A stretch of 64,000 nucleotides of DNA from a virus (taxonomy: Duplodnaviria; Caudoviricetes): positions 1-64,000 of IMG/VR virus record IMGVR_UViG_3300032319_000936. One strand, written 5' to 3'. A program made the position numbers and the translations under genes. This document shows positions 10,227-36,068 of the stretch, one piece after another; position 1 is the first letter of the stretch, and every line of letters starts with the position of its first letter. A model generated the notes under the pieces. That model was not told where the DNA came from, ran no database searches, and saw nothing but the letters and a program-made list of their open reading frames with translations.

Positions 10227-10619
10227 ATGAAACATCTAAAGAGATACAAAGAATTGTTTGAAGAACTGGAGCCGAAAGACTTTATCGAGCTTGAAGATTT
10301 TGCGGACGAACTGTTTTCTGAACTTGGCTTAGATATAGTACTCACTAATCACTTCAAGCAAAGGGTCAACGACTGGAGAGAGAATAGAAAACCGATCACC
10401 TTTGAAGAGCTTGAACAGTTCTTTCTGAAAGCATATAAGAATGCAGGAAAAGACATCAAGAAGCTGCCGCATAACAAGGAGGTGGTTCTTAGAGATCACT
10501 GGACCAAATTGAACAGCCCCATTATAGTCAAGGATAGAGGTAGTGAGAAAGACGTTCTTATGCAGACCATAATGAGAAAGAAGGACTTTGGCAGTCCAGA
10601 TCCAATCATCACGATATAA
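10227..10619 (+). CDS. hypothetical protein with CTS-like leader
   Basis: Start moved to MKHLKRYKELFE, 5 nt after GATATATA (10214..10221). Confidence 0.8.
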   Translation: MKHLKRYKELFEELEPKDFIELEDFADELFSELGLDIVLTNHFKQRVNDWRENRKPITFEELEQFFLKAYKNAGKDIKKLPHNKEVVLRDHWTKLNSPIIVKDRGSEKDVLMQTIMRKKDFGSPDPIITI

Positions 10620-10627
10620 TCTAAAAT

Positions 10628-11377
10628 TTATTTGGCTAGCAACTTCGCTTGCTCTAAATCTCTAACCCCGAATTTTTGAGCTTGTTTAAGATATCCGCTC
10701 GAAGAGAATTTGTCTGGGTTATCCTTCACCATCCTATTCCACCCATTGTATTTCGTGGTGTAATTCCAGATTTCATCTGTTGAGTCTAAATTAGGATTCA
10801 CTTTCTTGGTGTAAAAATACCCTCCGACATTACCACCAGTTCTATCTGCTCCATGAGCACAGTGTATTAGAGTGTTACCTCCTGAGAGTATCTCATTTAC
10901 TTTATCCTGATCTTTTGTTGAGGATAGCTTATTGAATTTGATACCTAAGCTGTTGCATAGATTTTTCTCTTCCTGTATCGAAGTTCCAGGATCAGATTTT
11001 CTATGTCTGCTGTCGTTATCGTCGCCATTTAGCCTAATAACGTTTCTTATACCGTACTTCTCTAAGAAATACTTAAGATCTTTGAGTGGCATCTGTGCAC
11101 TTCTGTAATTAGGCTTGGTTGTGGATAGATTATCAGGTATAAGATGTATGTTGTAAGTTTTAGATAGGCCTGCATCTTCTTTCTCAGTATCAAATGAGCC
11201 AGAGCTAATAAAATCCCCGCTTATCTTTTCAGGATCAACTTTTGCTGGTTCCTTGTATTGTATCTCACCAGATCCGGATCCAACACCAGGATACATTTTA
11301 TTGAGTATATTGGACGGTATCTGCCTATCCCCCTCATTTAGTGCTTCAAATAGCTCGAATTTGCTAATTACCCTCAT
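10628..11377 (-). CDS. Cys-based (dual-specificity/tyrosine) phosphatase
   Basis: HCAHGADRTG CX5R motif, YRSAQ motif; leader MRVISKFELFE. Confidence 0.8.
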   Translation of the reverse strand: MRVISKFELFEALNEGDRQIPSNILNKMYPGVGSGSGEIQYKEPAKVDPEKISGDFISSGSFDTEKEDAGLSKTYNIHLIPDNLSTTKPNYRSAQMPLKDLKYFLEKYGIRNVIRLNGDDNDSRHRKSDPGTSIQEEKNLCNSLGIKFNKLSSTKDQDKVNEILSGGNTLIHCAHGADRTGGNVGGYFYTKKVNPNLDSTDEIWNYTTKYNGWNRMVKDNPDKFSSSGYLKQAQKFGVRDLEQAKLLAK

Positions 11378-29475: not shown

Positions 29476-29496
29476 AAGGGATCTATATGATCCCTT
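29476..29496. terminator. terminator hairpin
   Basis: AAGGGATC-TATAT-GATCCCTT. Confidence 0.7.
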
Positions 29497-29514: not shown

Positions 29515-29973
29515 TCAATCTCCGTATTTGTCTCTTACTCGGACTCTGATATGTCTATACCATAGTCTTTCATGTAGAAAATAGATAATTGGTTTAAGTA
29601 TAAGTTCACCTATACCCAATAGTGAAGATAGTTGAATTGATGCACCTAGTGAATAAGCTACTGCTACCGTAGTTATAGTTCCAAGTATTCTATAGGAGAT
29701 TGTTTTTAGGATGTGTCTAGTTAAAACTGATTCCTCTTTAACTGTTGTCACATAGGCAATGTTATTCCTGATGCTACAGAATCCCTCACAGCTTATGTGC
29801 CATTTATAATCGTTTATCTCTTCTAGCCAATCTTTTGTTGTGTAGACGTGACCGTTTACCACGATATCCGAAACTAGTGTTTCTTTACCGTCTTCGATGA
29901 GTCTCCATCTGTCATCTTCAGAAGTGGAAACCGTGTTAAATCTAATCTGAAATTTCTTAGATTTCTCTTTCAT
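29515..29973 (-). CDS. DUF2061 membrane protein with extra N-terminal domain
   Basis: RHILKTISYRILGT...IYFLHERLW. Confidence 0.75.
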   Translation of the reverse strand: MKEKSKKFQIRFNTVSTSEDDRWRLIEDGKETLVSDIVVNGHVYTTKDWLEEINDYKWHISCEGFCSIRNNIAYVTTVKEESVLTRHILKTISYRILGTITTVAVAYSLGASIQLSSLLGIGELILKPIIYFLHERLWYRHIRVRVRDKYGD

Positions 29974-30368
29974 AACTTGCCCTCCGATTTCATTTTTTCT
30001 CTGATCTTAGTTGCTGATATATCGTGGATATCCTGCGGTGGAACATGCTCTATTAAATCGTAACCTACCCCTCTTCCCCAGTTTATGCTTTCGATATCTG
30101 GAATGATTCTTAACTTAACTCTTCCCTCAGATATAAGATCAGCTAAAGACACCATTAGATTCTCGTGTATCTGTTGGGCAGTCCATGGATTTTTCTCATC
30201 AACTGCAACGTCTCTAATGCACAACAACACATTCTTTCCTTCGTCTAAACTCTGATCAATGAGCCACTGATGTCCATCGTGCCAAGGCTGCCATCTGCCA
30301 ACATACATTGCATATACATTATCAGTGATTGATGTTTTTTTATCTGCTTTAGCTATATAGTTCTTCAT
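29970..30368 (-). CDS. HxGH nucleotidyltransferase (cytidyltransferase-like; candidate minimal ATP sulfurylase)
   Basis: GRWQPWHDGH and ISATKIR motifs. Confidence 0.75.
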   Translation of the reverse strand: MKNYIAKADKKTSITDNVYAMYVGRWQPWHDGHQWLIDQSLDEGKNVLLCIRDVAVDEKNPWTAQQIHENLMVSLADLISEGRVKLRIIPDIESINWGRGVGYDLIEHVPPQDIHDISATKIREKMKSEGKL

Positions 30369-30820
30369 ATTTCTGATATTTTGTTTGCGATGATGTTAGT
30401 ACACTCTTCTAATGAATTGGAGGTGTCTATTAAGATATAATTTGATTTAGGTGGCTGGTAGTTTTCAACGTGAAAATTCTCCCTGCCTCTTATCTGGTCA
30501 GTTGTGATGTAGTATTCTAGAATGGAATTCCCCATCTTAGATTTGAATTCTTCTCTCTGATCCTCGTATGGAGAAACTAGAGAAACTAAAACCATCTTAC
30601 CCTTTGATTGGATATAGTGAGCAAGGTGCTGAGCTAGCTCAATATTCTTCCTCCTCCCAGCCTCTGAATAATCCTTGTTCTGGTAGATTTCTCTGATATC
30701 GTCTCCATCTATATGAAAGGCATCTTTGTAGATCTTCATCAGTTCTTGACACAGTGTTGTTTTTCCGTGCCCTGGCTGTCCTGTTAGCCATACTATTACG
30801 TTTTTTTCTTGATTCATCAT
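30365..30820 (-). CDS. cysC: adenylyl-sulfate (APS) kinase
   Basis: WLTGQPGHGKTT, IDGDDIR, YSEAGRRKNI, VSLVSPY. Confidence 0.85.
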   Translation of the reverse strand: MMNQEKNVIVWLTGQPGHGKTTLCQELMKIYKDAFHIDGDDIREIYQNKDYSEAGRRKNIELAQHLAHYIQSKGKMVLVSLVSPYEDQREEFKSKMGNSILEYYITTDQIRGRENFHVENYQPPKSNYILIDTSNSLEECTNIIANKISEI

Positions 30821-31635
30821 TTGTATTGAAAATAGTCATAAAACCACTTGTAGTTATTTTTAATCCAGTCTGCAGGTGCCTTACCTAGTACCTGGTTATA
30901 GTCTGCAGGAATAAATTCAATCTTGCTCTTGATCTTGTGATCCCCATAGATTCCATAGACTGAATCATCCTCCTGTGTTATCTGCTCGACGGATTCGAAA
31001 TCGTGCTGGAAGTGTGGCACTCCAAGATAGGAATAAATTCTCTCCATTTCCTTATTTGGATTCTTTGTGAAATCCTCAAATTTAACAAATAACATTTTCT
31101 GATCAGTACCCTCTTTTAGGATCTGGTAAAGTCTCTCGAAAGCTAAACCAACCGGAGGTGATTGCACCCACGAGTCAATTCTTTTTTCAGTGGTTGTTCC
31201 TCTCATTTCTGAGTGATCCACCATCCCGGAATCAAGATGCTGGTTTTTTCTAAAGTTCTTCTCCATTGAAGCAAATATTGATCTTGGATCTCTAACCATG
31301 CAGATTATCTTTGGATCTGGATAAAAGAAATTTAGGAATTGATAATGCACTCCCCATCCTCTGCTTTTATCCATTACGTAAGGCTTTTCTGTGATTGCAT
31401 CAAAGAAACCCATTACTCCTCCGTGACAAAAGTTTCTAAAACCATTCATCATCAGATCTCCATCTTGAGCCTTAAACTCCGGGGATCCGGTATAATTAGA
31501 TCTAGCTGCATAGACCAACTCTAATACTCCTGATGTCGGTGTGACGTAGAAATCTGGGTTTTGACCCATCACATTCTGTAAGAGAGTCGAGCCTGATCTC
31601 GGAAGTGAGGATTGAAAAAATATCTTTTTCTTCAT
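30817..31635 (-). CDS. PAPS-dependent sulfotransferase
   Basis: LPRSGSTLL 5'-PSB loop, RDPRSIFAS 3'-PB motif. Confidence 0.9.
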   Translation of the reverse strand: MKKKIFFQSSLPRSGSTLLQNVMGQNPDFYVTPTSGVLELVYAARSNYTGSPEFKAQDGDLMMNGFRNFCHGGVMGFFDAITEKPYVMDKSRGWGVHYQFLNFFYPDPKIICMVRDPRSIFASMEKNFRKNQHLDSGMVDHSEMRGTTTEKRIDSWVQSPPVGLAFERLYQILKEGTDQKMLFVKFEDFTKNPNKEMERIYSYLGVPHFQHDFESVEQITQEDDSVYGIYGDHKIKSKIEFIPADYNQVLGKAPADWIKNNYKWFYDYFQYK

Positions 31636-32526
31636 TTATTTTAGGGTTTTAATAATTTCTTCTATTCTAAATATATCGTTGGATAAATAAGGGCACTCGT
31701 GTATGCTACCAGCAAAATTGTAATCGAAAAGATAGCTGTCTGGCAGATTATGAAGTTGCGGATCGTCTGCAACTATATTGGTGTGCATATCGTAGCCAAA
31801 TAACTTAGGTGAGGTTCCAACCCAAAGAACTGTGGATGGCATCCCTAATGCTGCCGCTGCATGTTGCAAACACGAGTCTATCAATAGTCTTTTCTGTGAA
31901 GCTGCAACTAAACTGAATAGCTCCATATTAGAAAGCTGCTGCGAGACGTGCTCAACCCCTTCTATTGGTATGAAGTTGTCCTGGTTTCTGCAAACCTGAA
32001 TCACGTGATGGGTCTCCATCATTTCTCTAGCTACCTCTTCCGCTATATGAGGTGGCATATCCCTTGTCCAAGCGTAGCTGTAAGGCTGCTCCGAGATAGC
32101 TCCTCCGTTTGTATGGATAAGAAAAATAGGTTTTTCCCTTCTCCAGAGCTGTACGCCTCTCTGGACCTGCCTGAAATTGAAACCTAGCTCTGGTAACTCC
32201 CCATTGTAAACAAGGTTGTGCATGTTACACCAGCTGTTTATTAGACTTTTTCTTTTGTGGATGTGATCCGTTGTGAAATAAGGCTCTCCTTTAAATATTA
32301 ATGAGTCTTTGTCTTTGATAAAATTGGAATAGAAGTGTGGGGTCACACCGATGCGATAAACCTGATACACGAAATCTAGATTTATGTATAGTCCAGGATA
32401 GGCGCAAACGACAATTAATTTTCTATCCGGGTGATTGTTTTTTATGCACCTAGCAACTGCTGTAGCTGCTACGTGTTTTCCTAAGCCTCCTTCGAGGTGG
32501 AAAATAGAATATTTCTCGCTAGTCAT
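31636..32526 (-). CDS. GT9-like glycosyltransferase
   Basis: GGLGK..AT..A..IK..HP N-terminus, IDSCLQHAAAALGMPSTVLW motif. Confidence 0.75.
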   Translation of the reverse strand: MTSEKYSIFHLEGGLGKHVAATAVARCIKNNHPDRKLIVVCAYPGLYINLDFVYQVYRIGVTPHFYSNFIKDKDSLIFKGEPYFTTDHIHKRKSLINSWCNMHNLVYNGELPELGFNFRQVQRGVQLWRREKPIFLIHTNGGAISEQPYSYAWTRDMPPHIAEEVAREMMETHHVIQVCRNQDNFIPIEGVEHVSQQLSNMELFSLVAASQKRLLIDSCLQHAAAALGMPSTVLWVGTSPKLFGYDMHTNIVADDPQLHNLPDSYLFDYNFAGSIHECPYLSNDIFRIEEIIKTLK

Positions 32527-32564
32527 GCATATTATATGAGACTAGAGAGATAAGTTTCTAATTT

Positions 32565-35500
32565 TTAAGGTACAATATTTAACACAGTACCAAGTCTATA
32601 CACAGCTCCACTAGGTAATCCTGCTGCTGATGTTGGTATGTTTGTCAGAGATAGATTTTCAGTAAAGAGTGTTTTTACTCTATTTGCTACGATGTTTTGC
32701 CCGAAGACATACACTAAATTATTTCCGTTGTCGCAACTATTCAATCCGTAAACAAAACTATATGCTCCACTTGCGGTTGTACAACAGCCCGATGCGGTGG
32801 AAAAATTACCACTTGCGGTTGTTCTATTTCCCGATGCGGTAGATAAATATCCACTTGCGGTTGTTCTATTTCCCGATGCGGTGGAAAAGTTACCACTTGC
32901 GGTTGCCCCAACTCCCGATGCGGTGGAACAATAGCCACTTGCGATTGTGCATCTTCCCGATGCGGTGGAATAATAGCCGCTTGCGGTTGTACAATATCCC
33001 GATGCGGTGGAAAAAGTCCTACTTGCGGTTGTGCAATACCCCGATGCAATAGAATAATTACCACTTGCGTTATTACAATAACCATTCAAAACACTTGAAT
33101 AAAAACCACTCGCGCTATTCTGAAATCCGTTACCGATAAACGAATGACATCCCGAATCTACGGGTGTTGGAGCGACTGACCAAGAAGTTCCCGTCCAAGT
33201 TCCTCCTGTAGTATTGTTCGCGTTTCCGTTGACAACAACTCCGTAGTTTGCGTAGGCAGAACAAGTAGAGTTTCCGATGTGATTATAAAGTCCATTGTGA
33301 ACACTTGCAAAACAATATCCACTCGCGGTTGTACATTTTCCCGATGCGGTGGAAAATGAACCACTTGCGGTTGTACATTTTCCCGATGCGGTGGAATAAC
33401 TACCGCTTGCGGTTGTGCAATATCCCGATGCGGTGGATTTACTATTACTTGCGGTTGTGTATCTTCCCGATGCGGTGGAATAATTAGCACTTGCGGTTGT
33501 GCAATATCCCGATGCGGTGGAAAAATAGCCACTTGCGGTTGTGTATCTTCCCGATGCGGTGGAATGAGAATTACTTGCGATTGTGCAGTATCCCGATGCG
33601 GTGGAAAAACATCCACTTGCGGTTGTATTATATCCCAATGCGGTGGAATAATTACCACTTGCGATAGTGCTACATCCCAATGCGGTGGAATATGAACAAC
33701 TTGCGTTTGCGCCATTTCCTGATGCGATAGAGTAGTCACCACTTGCGGTTGTGACACATCCCGATGCGGTGGAATGATTACCACTTGCAGTCACGGTAAA
33801 TCCAGAGGCATTAGCATATTCACCACTTGCATTTACGAATTGTCCAGAAGCCCTAGAAAAATTATTACTAGCATTGGCATATCTTCCAACTAAAACACTT
33901 GAATATGAGCCACTTGCGCCATTCTGAAATCCGTTTCCGATGAAAGAATGATACCCCGAATCTATGGGTGTTGGAGCGACTGACCAATATGTTCCCGACC
34001 ACGTTCCTCCCGTAGTATTGTTTGCATTTCCGTTTACAACCACTCCGTAGTTAGCGTATGCCGAACAAGTAGAATTTCCGATGTGATTGTAAAGTCCATT
34101 ATGAACACTTGCGAAACGATATCCACTTGCGGTTGTGTAAAATCCCGATGCGGTGGAATTATAACCACTTGCGGTTGTGCAATACCCCGATGCGGTGGAA
34201 TAACCCCCACTTGCAGTTGTGTTTCTTCCCGATGCGGTGGAATAATTACAACTTGCGGTTGTGTTTCTTCCCGATGCGGTGGAATAATTACTACTTGCGG
34301 TTGTGAAAACTCCCGATGCGGTGGAATGATAACCACTTGCGGTTGTGCAAAGTCCCGATGCGGTGGAATAATCACCACTTGCTATATTTGTAGAGCCATT
34401 CAAAACAATTGAATAGTTACCACTTGCAGTGTTACAATATCCTCCGCTTATAGTTGAGTGGAGTCCGGTTGCATAGTTGTACTGTCCTCCCCCTATTGAC
34501 GAACCGCAACCACTTGCGGTGCTACCTTGCCCACCACTTACGGTTGAATAATTACAACTTGCAATGTTACCATATCCACCACTTACGGTTGAATTATATC
34601 CACTTGCGATGTTAGCACCTCCACCACTCACGGTTGTGTAATATCCACTTGCGCTGTTACTTTCTCCACCACCTACGGTTGACCTATTACCACTTGCGGT
34701 GTTACGATATCCACCACTTACTGTTGAGTTTGGTCCGGTTGCATAGTTACATTGTCCACCACCTACTGTCGAGCAATTGCTACTTGCGGTGTTACAAAAT
34801 CCACCACCTATGGTTGAATAATTACAACTTGCGGTGTTATAGCATCCTCCGCTTACTGTTGCATAATCACAGGTTGCAGAGTTGCGTCTTCCCCCACCTA
34901 TTGTTGCATAAGGGCCTGTTGCATAGTTACAATATCCTCCACTTAGTGTTGAGGCATATGCACTTGCGGTGTTGCAATATCCACCACTTACTGTTGAGTA
35001 ATTACCACTTGCTGTGCTACAACGTCCACCACCAACTGTTGCGCTAGTACCGGTTGAGAAGTTCTCCCTTCCCCCACCGACTGTTGATCGATTACCTGTT
35101 GCCTGGTTCGATAAACCTCCACTTACGGTTGAGTAATTACTACTTGCGGTGTTACAAAATCCACCGCTTACTGTTGAACTATAAGAACTTGCTGTGTTAT
35201 TAAATCCGCCACTTACGGTTGAATAATTACAACTTGCGGTGTTATAGCATCCCCCACTTACTGTTGCATAATCACAGGTTGCAGAGTTGTGCCTTCCCCC
35301 GCTTATAGTTGAATAATTACAACTTGCGGTGTTTTCTCCTCCCCCAGAAATAGTTGAGGCATATCCACTTGCGGTATTGTGATATCCTCCGCTGATCGTT
35401 GTGGCATAATCACTTGCGGTATTGTAATATCCTCCGCTTACTGTAGAGTATAGGCAGCTTGCGGTGTTATTTCTACCTCCTGATACTGTTGAACAGTCAT

Positions 35501-36068
35501 CACTTGCGGTGTTAGATTGTCCTCCACTTACTGTTGAATAAGCACCCCCTGCTGAATTACCGTTGCCTATTCTAAGAGTACTTTGATTGCCTGTTCCTGT
35601 AGAAAATATGGAAGATCCACCGGATCCTCCGAAAGCAGCTGTCATTCCATTTGAATCTATTACAGCTAATGTTCCATTGTCGAATATTAGTTGAACACCA
35701 GTAGCACCGTTAGGGTCAGCTATAGTGTAAGCGCTTGCTTGAATGCCGTCATTCGGTGCTTGTGATATCTGAGCTGTTCCTATATAGATAGTTGCAGAGT
35801 CGGTGTAAACTGTACCAAAGTAGCCATCCTTCCATCTAAGTGAAGCGGATCCTATATTATAGGTGCTATCCAAAGCAGGCAATATGTCCTGATTCAACTC
35901 AGATAGACCAGTATTAAGATAAGGAAGGGCGGACCAGTTGCTCTGACCGTCTCCTATCTTTAATCTACCTGTGTCTGTAACAAACCCCGCTTCTCCACTT
36001 AAAAGAACTGGTTCATTATAATTCCAGTTTATAAGGGTGTCTCTCCTGAGAAGTATTCTATAAGCCAT
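32565..36068 (-). CDS. tail fibre/adhesin with Mtd-N-like domain and YadA-head-like repeats
   Basis: RRDT..NW...PVL..GE.G..TDT...KIGDG...W..LPY N-terminus; 15-aa and 14-aa Ser/Thr/Gly/Cys repeats; GATATATA at 36097..36090. Confidence 0.85.
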   Translation of the reverse strand: MAYRILLRRDTLINWNYNEPVLLSGEAGFVTDTGRLKIGDGQSNWSALPYLNTGLSELNQDILPALDSTYNIGSASLRWKDGYFGTVYTDSATIYIGTAQISQAPNDGIQASAYTIADPNGATGVQLIFDNGTLAVIDSNGMTAAFGGSGGSSIFSTGTGNQSTLRIGNGNSAGGAYSTVSGGQSNTASDDCSTVSGGRNNTASCLYSTVSGGYYNTASDYATTISGGYHNTASGYASTISGGGENTASCNYSTISGGRHNSATCDYATVSGGCYNTASCNYSTVSGGFNNTASSYSSTVSGGFCNTASSNYSTVSGGLSNQATGNRSTVGGGRENFSTGTSATVGGGRCSTASGNYSTVSGGYCNTASAYASTLSGGYCNYATGPYATIGGGRRNSATCDYATVSGGCYNTASCNYSTIGGGFCNTASSNCSTVGGGQCNYATGPNSTVSGGYRNTASGNRSTVGGGESNSASGYYTTVSGGGANIASGYNSTVSGGYGNIASCNYSTVSGGQGSTASGCGSSIGGGQYNYATGLHSTISGGYCNTASGNYSIVLNGSTNIASGDYSTASGLCTTASGYHSTASGVFTTASSNYSTASGRNTTASCNYSTASGRNTTASGGYSTASGYCTTASGYNSTASGFYTTASGYRFASVHNGLYNHIGNSTCSAYANYGVVVNGNANNTTGGTWSGTYWSVAPTPIDSGYHSFIGNGFQNGASGSYSSVLVGRYANASNNFSRASGQFVNASGEYANASGFTVTASGNHSTASGCVTTASGDYSIASGNGANASCSYSTALGCSTIASGNYSTALGYNTTASGCFSTASGYCTIASNSHSTASGRYTTASGYFSTASGYCTTASANYSTASGRYTTASNSKSTASGYCTTASGSYSTASGKCTTASGSFSTASGKCTTASGYCFASVHNGLYNHIGNSTCSAYANYGVVVNGNANNTTGGTWTGTSWSVAPTPVDSGCHSFIGNGFQNSASGFYSSVLNGYCNNASGNYSIASGYCTTASRTFSTASGYCTTASGYYSTASGRCTIASGYCSTASGVGATASGNFSTASGNRTTASGYLSTASGNRTTASGNFSTASGCCTTASGAYSFVYGLNSCDNGNNLVYVFGQNIVANRVKTLFTENLSLTNIPTSAAGLPSGAVYRLGTVLNIVP
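32760..35540 (-). repeat. intragenic 42-bp and 45-bp tandem repeats
   Basis: CCCGATGCGGTGGA and ACTTGCGGT recur at 42/45 bp periods. Confidence 0.9.

Follow-up and report, generated by a model that had tools for sequence, protein, structure and literature searches.

In PAPS synthases and Sat–CysC pairs or fusions, such as human PAPSS1 (1x6v), its Aquifex counterpart (2gks) and the Sat–CysC of Nitrospiraceae, an enzyme that adenylylates sulfate to adenosine 5′-phosphosulfate (APS) is encoded next to, or fused with, an APS kinase, which converts APS into 3′-phosphoadenosine 5′-phosphosulfate (PAPS). CysDN, a PP-loop ATPase plus GTPase, takes the same position in the pathway, and a genome may hold more than one sulfate-activation system: rhizobial NodPQ, of the CysDN/CysC type, stands beside CysDN as a dedicated second sulfate activation that feeds the carbohydrate sulfotransferase NoeE or NodH. 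On the side of protein glycosylation, the GT9-fold enzymes TibC and Aah are encoded beside the Ser-rich beta-helix adhesins TibA and AIDA-I, which they heptosylate. Here we compare with these systems an operon at positions 29,515–36,068 of the first 64 kb (hereafter the window) of the viral record IMGVR_UViG_3300032319_000936 (Caudoviricetes), from a large lake phage, in which genes for a glycosyltransferase (GT), a sulfotransferase (ST), an APS kinase (APSK), a small HxGH nucleotidyltransferase (NT) and a DUF2061 protein follow a tail-fibre gene. Comparative genomics identifies sulfate adenylylation as the best available explanation for NT, which is probably an ATP sulfurylase coupled to APSK much as Sat is to CysC.

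The sequence-only reading had described five abutting or overlapping genes that start 38 bp behind a fibre gene encoding 1167 amino acids (aa), and all six open reading frames (ORFs) were recovered in that order and place, head to tail on the minus strand. Spacing is 38 bp between fibre and GT, 0 between GT and ST, and −4 bp at each of the junctions ST–APSK, APSK–NT and NT–DUF2061. Together, the six genes make up a single minus-strand unit, closed by a hairpin, with the following features:

32565..36068, minus strand: tail-fibre/adhesin, 1167 aa, with an Mtd_N-like N-terminus and a Ser/Gly/Thr/Ala/Asn-rich beta-solenoid containing Cys and Tyr
32527..32564, minus strand: 38-bp spacer between fibre and GT, with a promoter-like match (consensus match)
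31636..32526, minus strand: GT-B glycosyltransferase of predicted GT9 (heptosyltransferase-like) fold, 296 aa (AlphaFold and Foldseek)
30817..31635, minus strand: PAPS-dependent sulfotransferase, 272 aa (Pfam, NCBIfam, PHROG and motifs)
30365..30820, minus strand: truncated APS kinase, 151 aa (PF01583 and PDB matches)
29970..30368, minus strand: HxGH nucleotidyltransferase of an unnamed family, 132 aa, candidate minimal ATP sulfurylase (motifs and comparative genomics)
29515..29973, minus strand: DUF2061 protein, 152 aa (PF09834 and hydropathy)
29476..29496, bidirectional: terminator-like hairpin with a trailing T-run, separating the operon from a convergent gene for a 597-aa SLT/PG-binding protein

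NT belongs to a large family: metagenomes contain over 2,800 close relatives, many of them ~70% identical, and its clusters at 50% identity number 1,088. In 79 of 80 IMG/VR loci, APSK directly precedes NT in the same orientation; of the 80, 34 encode DUF2061, mostly just behind NT, and 15 each have ST and GT. APSK and NT are also fused in both orders (APSK–NT and NT–APSK), and an NT–DUF2061 fusion occurs as well (P0159). Cultured siphophages of Xylella, Xanthomonas, Stenotrophomonas and Clavibacter carry the APSK–NT fusion, annotated as 'kinase' or 'adenylylsulfate kinase'. In Xylella phage Salvo (gp32; L001) and its relatives it sits among early and DNA-metabolism genes, and no gene within 6 kb is annotated as a sulfotransferase.

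The association extends to cellular genomes, for which loci were searched with a 10-sequence subset of the 36-sequence NT alignment because the full set was too diverse. Chromosomes of Marinimicrobia/Fidelibacterota, Marinoscillum, Flavobacteriales, marine group III archaea, Nitrospiraceae, Thermodesulfobacteriota/Dadabacteria and others encode NT; APSK adjoins it in 38 of the 80 cellular loci by strict tblastn, and Pfam recognised a canonical CysC, adjacent or fused, in a further four. In Nitrospiraceae, NT shares an operon with sulfite reductase and CysH (APS-reductase type); in Marinimicrobia, a short APSK–NT pair has Sulfotransfer_5, Poly_export and Polysacc_synt_2 genes as neighbours; a Bacteroidota locus encodes a canonical CysC and then NT, and an Omnitrophica locus an NT–CysC fusion. 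The short kinase type of the window is the sole APS kinase found in 12 Marinimicrobia-type genomes (G001–G004, G006–G009, G012, G014, G016 and G017) of a panel of 42 genomes with NT. Across that panel, an APS kinase was found in 40 genomes, Sat in 4 and CysD in 3, and eight closed chromosomes with NT (G009, G027, G033–G037 and G039) contain neither Sat nor CysD. In G027, a CysH-type gene that scores as an APS reductase adjoins a sulfate permease gene. Genomes with CysH, CysC and sulfate permease need APS, which argues for NT as its source independently of the statistic given below.

The distribution of NT is complementary to that of the known sulfurylases. In 81 genomes from the phylum of G027, the same sample serving all three queries, NT was found in 59, Sat in 11, a CysD-type gene in 7 and none of the three in 4, with zero co-occurrence. 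A CysH-type gene is present in 58 of the 59 NT genomes, Sat lies within ~200 bp of CysH in 8 of its 11 genomes, one of the seven CysD-type cases was verified as Sir–CysD–CysN, and the four genomes without NT, Sat or CysD also lack CysH. The exclusion between NT and Sat/CysD has p = 1.6e-14 by Fisher's exact test, a value that is uncorrected for phylogeny and overstates independence, the groups probably being clades. In a second phyletic sample, from the phylum/order of G009, just two NT-positive genomes passed the completeness filter.

The NT protein reaches Pfam CTP_transf_like at its cut-off (21 bits) and carries the motifs GRWQPWHDGH (residues 24–33) and ISATKIR (117–123), to which its family alignment adds a conserved loop of its own, IPDIESVNYGRGVGY, with an invariant Gly-Arg. 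Its nearest relatives by sequence are NadM and archaeal nicotinamide mononucleotide (NMN) adenylyltransferase (NMNAT), matched along the N-terminal half (residues 20–93), and NMNAT is also its best match among PDB chains by phmmer (1e-5). The AlphaFold model (pLDDT 90) predicts a HIGH-type alpha/beta nucleotidyltransferase fold that is compatible with ATP sulfurylase: it matches NMNAT (Z 9.7) and phosphopantetheine adenylyltransferase (PPAT; Z 9.6), and by VIA-align also Thermus Sat 1v47_B (Z 7.7, 117 residues aligned, rmsd 3.6) and 1j70, 2gks and 1x6v (Z 6.2–6.3). NT and Sat share the HIGH nucleotidyltransferase superfamily and an [IL]S[AG]TK[IV]R motif, whereas NT has ~110–130 residues against ~390 for Sat and lacks the PUA-like domain. 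From CysDN it differs in fold altogether, for all that the predicted reaction is the same. A second HxGH domain is encoded in the same phage record beyond the window, at ~129.3–131.3 kb (L165:1243–3183, minus strand), within a 646-aa ORF that also has a weak RNA-ligase match.

Several observations weigh against an ATP sulfurylase. NT has no match to PF01747 (Sat) at E <= 0.01, and aligning its family with five Sat sequences in hhalign gave a probability of 27%, with only ISATxIR aligned, to LSGTKVRE. The Sat motifs QTRNP (QxRNPxHxxH) and GRDHAG, both present in four of those five Sat sequences, are absent from NT, which has GRWQPWHDGH and YGRGVGY instead, and it is NadM/archaeal NMNAT and PPAT that come closest to it in sequence and fold. 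Given the hhalign probability, the alignment of a C-terminal motif alone and the NMNAT-like sequence and fold, NT falls outside the Sat family and forms a small family of its own within that superfamily. The genomic evidence also has exceptions: 7 of the 42 NT genomes also carry Sat or CysDN, Nitrospiraceae hold a Sat–CysC fusion elsewhere in the genome, genomes of Chitinophagales and Lewinellaceae have CysH–CysD–CysN plus an APSK–NT fusion, and in an Acidobacteriota locus (L128) an NT–CysC (NT–APSK) fusion divergently adjoins cysD–cysN. Displacement of Sat or CysDN by NT is not universal, and the complementary pattern may in part be clade structure. Finally, four phage records that are 95–100% complete contain APSK–NT and no Pfam-recognisable sulfotransferase or PAPS reductase.

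The similarity to NadM and archaeal NMNAT (1f9a, 1ej2 and 2qjo), which share GRxQPxHxGH and SxTxxR with NT, favours a conventional adenylyltransferase for NMN or another mononucleotide that serves phage NAD metabolism, with the kinase turning host-made APS into PAPS for the sulfotransferase. We consider this improbable, since the alignment is confined to the N-terminal half and the NMNAT-type families score NT at 26–37 bits against cut-offs of 127–409 (TIGR01527 and PRK01153: 26.3 bits against 181.2 and 33.3 against 127). In addition, NT is ~40 residues shorter than NMNATs and has its own loop, linkage or fusion to APSK is near-universal, and the cellular neighbours are sulfur genes, never NAD genes. 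Five of the eight closed NT genomes without Sat and CysD were checked and also contain separate, strong CTP_transf_like genes of the sizes of CoaD, NadD and RibF, by which those housekeeping roles look to be filled. The coexistence of NT with CysDN or Sat in seven genomes, once within the same cluster, would instead fit a pair that makes some other 3′-phospho-adenylyl compound, or an NT accessory to the kinase (in proofreading, channelling or acting on 3′-phosphoadenosine 5′-phosphate, PAP), as would the complete phages that encode the pair but no recognisable sulfotransferase and the Xylella and Xanthomonas phage fusions among DNA-metabolism genes. To this we likewise give little credence: the kinase retains its APS-binding residues and matches APS kinases alone in the PDB, a PAPS-type sulfotransferase shares the operon in the window, and genomes with CysH, CysC and sulfate permease still require APS where a known sulfurylase is missing.

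Alternatively, a small HxGH enzyme beside a GT9-like enzyme might make the nucleotide-sugar donor, for instance as an ADP-heptose synthase resembling HldC; ADP-heptose is the donor of GT9 enzymes, the HxGH proteins HldC and TagD are about as small as NT, and the NT model matches HldC 5x9q (Z 6.1). Such a role is very unlikely, given that 65 viral loci and almost every cellular locus have NT with APSK but no matching GT, that it is placed in a sulfite reductase–CysH operon, and that no heptose-pathway gene was seen in the operon. We therefore read NT as an ATP sulfurylase because of its linkage to APSK, the fusions in both orders, the assimilatory operons and the complementary phyletic pattern. 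The sequence-only proposal of a minimal, non-canonical ATP sulfurylase is well supported by these four lines and not by sequence or fold, which resemble NMNAT and not Sat.

The neighbouring enzymes were largely as the sequence-only reading had named them. The kinase matches APS_kinase (PF01583, 2.5e-17) over profile positions 2–110 of 152 only and retains a P-loop (14–22), DGDD (38–41), RRKNI (56–60) and VSP (82–84), with a diverged C-terminal lid region. Against the PDB it matches APS kinases exclusively (best 8a8h, 5e-12, residues 3–106; 5cb6 was also aligned), and its 70.7 bits against TIGR00455 lie under the equivalog cut-off of 138.7; the family is thus confirmed for a protein that is truncated. 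The sulfotransferase scores well above threshold for Sulfotransfer_3 (PF13469, 1.1e-21; 78.6 bits against a cut-off of 27), also matches Sulfotransfer_1 (3.7e-15) and phrog_27463 (3e-39), and has both PAPS-binding motifs, a PSB loop PRSGST (12–17) and a 3′-PB motif RDPRS (115–119); its nearest named family in NCBIfam is the carbohydrate sulfotransferase NoeE (4.9e-10). The GT9-like call was borne out by fold: the glycosyltransferase has no Pfam family at E <= 0.01 and a weak NCBIfam match to RfaC (0.005), and its AlphaFold model (pLDDT 80) retrieved GT9 structures as top Foldseek matches (3tov, 1.1e-10; 1psw, 3.9e-10; 6dfe/2h1h; TibC 4rb4/4rap), WaaF and WaaC among them, which points to a GT-B fold nearest the heptosyltransferases.

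The DUF2061 protein (PF09834, 2.4e-14; 53.9 bits against a cut-off of 23.1) comprises an 85-aa N-terminal domain and, by hydropathy, a two-helix hydrophobic C-terminus (~88–134). In L020:8384–8826 and L038:6445–6889, the 85-aa domain is encoded by a small ORF of its own immediately ahead of a 69–79-aa DUF2061 gene, so the two parts are independent modules. A search of longer DUF2061-containing proteins gave one, uninformative, match, and the DUF2061 clusters returned by an Atlas search were viral only. The protein may serve as a membrane tether or aid sulfate entry.

Together, these families suggest a route in which NT would adenylylate sulfate (ATP + sulfate -> APS + pyrophosphate) and the truncated kinase, by its predicted activity, would convert APS to PAPS and so pull the unfavourable first step. 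The GT9-fold enzyme would then add a sugar that the sulfotransferase would sulfate with PAPS. On the present comparisons, the balance tilts towards this whole scheme of sulfate activation with glycosylation and sulfation. It would parallel NodPQ with NoeE/NodH in devoting a sulfate activation to a carbohydrate sulfotransferase, with NT–APSK in place of a CysDN/CysC-type enzyme and an acceptor other than a lipochitooligosaccharide. PF01747 and PF01507 (Sat and CysD) gave zero matches across the entire 180,758-bp record (estimated to be 66% complete), so the earlier observation that no Sat or CysDN gene lies in the window holds, by these two families, for the record as a whole. Calling the operon self-contained was too strong, as no genes for sugar-nucleotide synthesis, sulfate uptake or a PAP phosphatase were identified within it.

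Which product would receive the sugar turns on the fibre. Its N-terminus corresponds to the tail fibre family phrog_6049 (8e-9) and to Mtd_N (5.7e-12), and its body consists of YadA-head (YadA_head, 4.7e-11) and ice-binding-like (LbR_Ice_bind, 3.8e-21) beta-roll repeats, with an internal duplication at residues 652 and 920. Ser (17%), Gly (16%), Thr (13%), Ala (11%), Asn (9%), Tyr (7.5%) and Cys (3.7%) dominate its composition, and 69 [ST][AVIL][SG]G motifs recur at a spacing of 7 or 14–15 residues. Because of this motif periodicity and composition, the Ser/Thr richness is first of all a beta-solenoid signature and not evidence of glycosylation. The 43 Cys and 87 Tyr stand at recurring repeat positions, and the match at 3.8e-21 is to the grass antifreeze beta-roll family; the fibre may be a disulfide-laddered, flat-faced solenoid.

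The sequence-only reading had named in advance a lack of conserved linkage to fibre genes as telling against it. We scored as fibre-like any long ORF with at least 45% Ser/Thr/Gly/Ala/Asn that ends within 4 kb upstream of the cassette. Such an ORF was present in 10 of 11 loci with ST or GT (in 8 of them within 62 nt), compared with 3 of 42 loci that have neither; linkage is therefore kept for cassettes with ST or GT, and it is these genes, not the PAPS pair itself, that track fibre genes. By tblastn, no homologue of the window fibre was found in the viral loci, and a conclusion that the linkage is not conserved was dropped, as non-homologous fibres, recognised by composition and Peptidase_S74, occupy the same position. 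A Peptidase_S74 chaperone domain is carried by the upstream fibres of L017 and L020, and a Flavobacteriaceae-binned contig (L084) has the layout fibre–ST–APSK–NT–DUF2061–GT with a homologous fibre.

Because ST and GT genes track fibres and the GT resembles GT9 enzymes and TibC, the fibre is a reasonable acceptor by analogy, and Ser/Thr residues of this adjacent beta-solenoid would be the likeliest sites, as with TibC and Aah; the phage enzyme is ~100 residues shorter than these, and the sulfation step has no counterpart in them. The main alternative is that the same chemistry acts on a host envelope glycan, for receptor masking or superinfection exclusion, or on another phage product, the place beside the fibre being a site of accessory-gene insertion. 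We regard this as quite possible, at somewhat less than an even chance. GT9 enzymes classically act on the lipopolysaccharide core, the sulfotransferase resembles NoeE, and the operon encodes a membrane protein, which fits a cytoplasmic fibre substrate poorly; moreover, the loci with ST or GT belong to related phages, in which synteny may be inherited. Set against it, the cassette keeps its place behind different fibre families (Mtd_N/YadA-like here, Peptidase_S74-bearing in L017 and L020), and TibC-type GT9 enzymes do glycosylate beta-helix adhesins.

The spacer between fibre and GT contains TAGAAA-N18-TATAAT, ending 4 nt ahead of the GT start codon, a consensus match only in a region where promoter-like matches are no more numerous than in shuffled sequence, and no terminator was predicted in these 38 bp. 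The operon had no blastn match in the phage collection.

Other viral loci show further genes around the APSK–NT pair. A 112-aa HAD-like phosphatase lies between APSK and NT in L079:7657–7995 (Hydrolase_3, 1.4e-4) and, recognised by sequence resemblance only, right after NT in L038:6110–6448; it could be a pyrophosphatase or PAP phosphatase that aids the pathway. APSK–NT–DUF2061 stands amid QueC-, QueD- and QueE-like genes, all under family cut-offs, in L079:6375–12789 and L081:6394–7188, and in L079 a NodU-like carbamoyltransferase (5e-37) adjoins this region. Proteins of 184–208 aa with PRTGSS, GRAGST or PDKTATS loops are encoded beside the pair in L082:9079–9633 and 10453–11064 and in L036:6663–7289; they have no Pfam or NCBIfam match, and by eye they may be mini-sulfotransferases, which we left uncounted. 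Large opposite-strand ORFs whose N-termini look GT4-/GT2-type lie just past the cassettes of two related phages (L005:8840–13355 and L012:8840–11749), suggesting a glycan island larger than that in the window.

Full-text searches of a paper library found no description of the NT enzyme family and no report of phages that decorate receptor-binding proteins or the host surface with sulfate. In its fullest form, our interpretation would make NT a third, minimal class of ATP sulfurylase that is the sole APS supply in lineages seemingly devoid of sulfate activation (the phylum of G027, streamlined Marinimicrobia and marine group III archaea), and would have the phage sulfate sugars on its own fibre to yield a sulfated virion glycoprotein; we offer this combination tentatively, as rather unlikely to hold in every part. 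The cultured Xylella, Xanthomonas, Stenotrophomonas and Clavibacter phages lend themselves to experiments, and the fused proteins, if they are PAPS synthases of ~250–330 residues, would provide a compact tool for making PAPS. The retention of a glycosylation and sulfation cassette beside fibres suggests sulfated receptor-binding proteins or a sulfated host surface. If NT is an ATP sulfurylase, inventories of the sulfur cycle misread many genomes, and numerous marine and freshwater bacteria, archaea and phages would have been wrongly scored as unable to activate sulfate.

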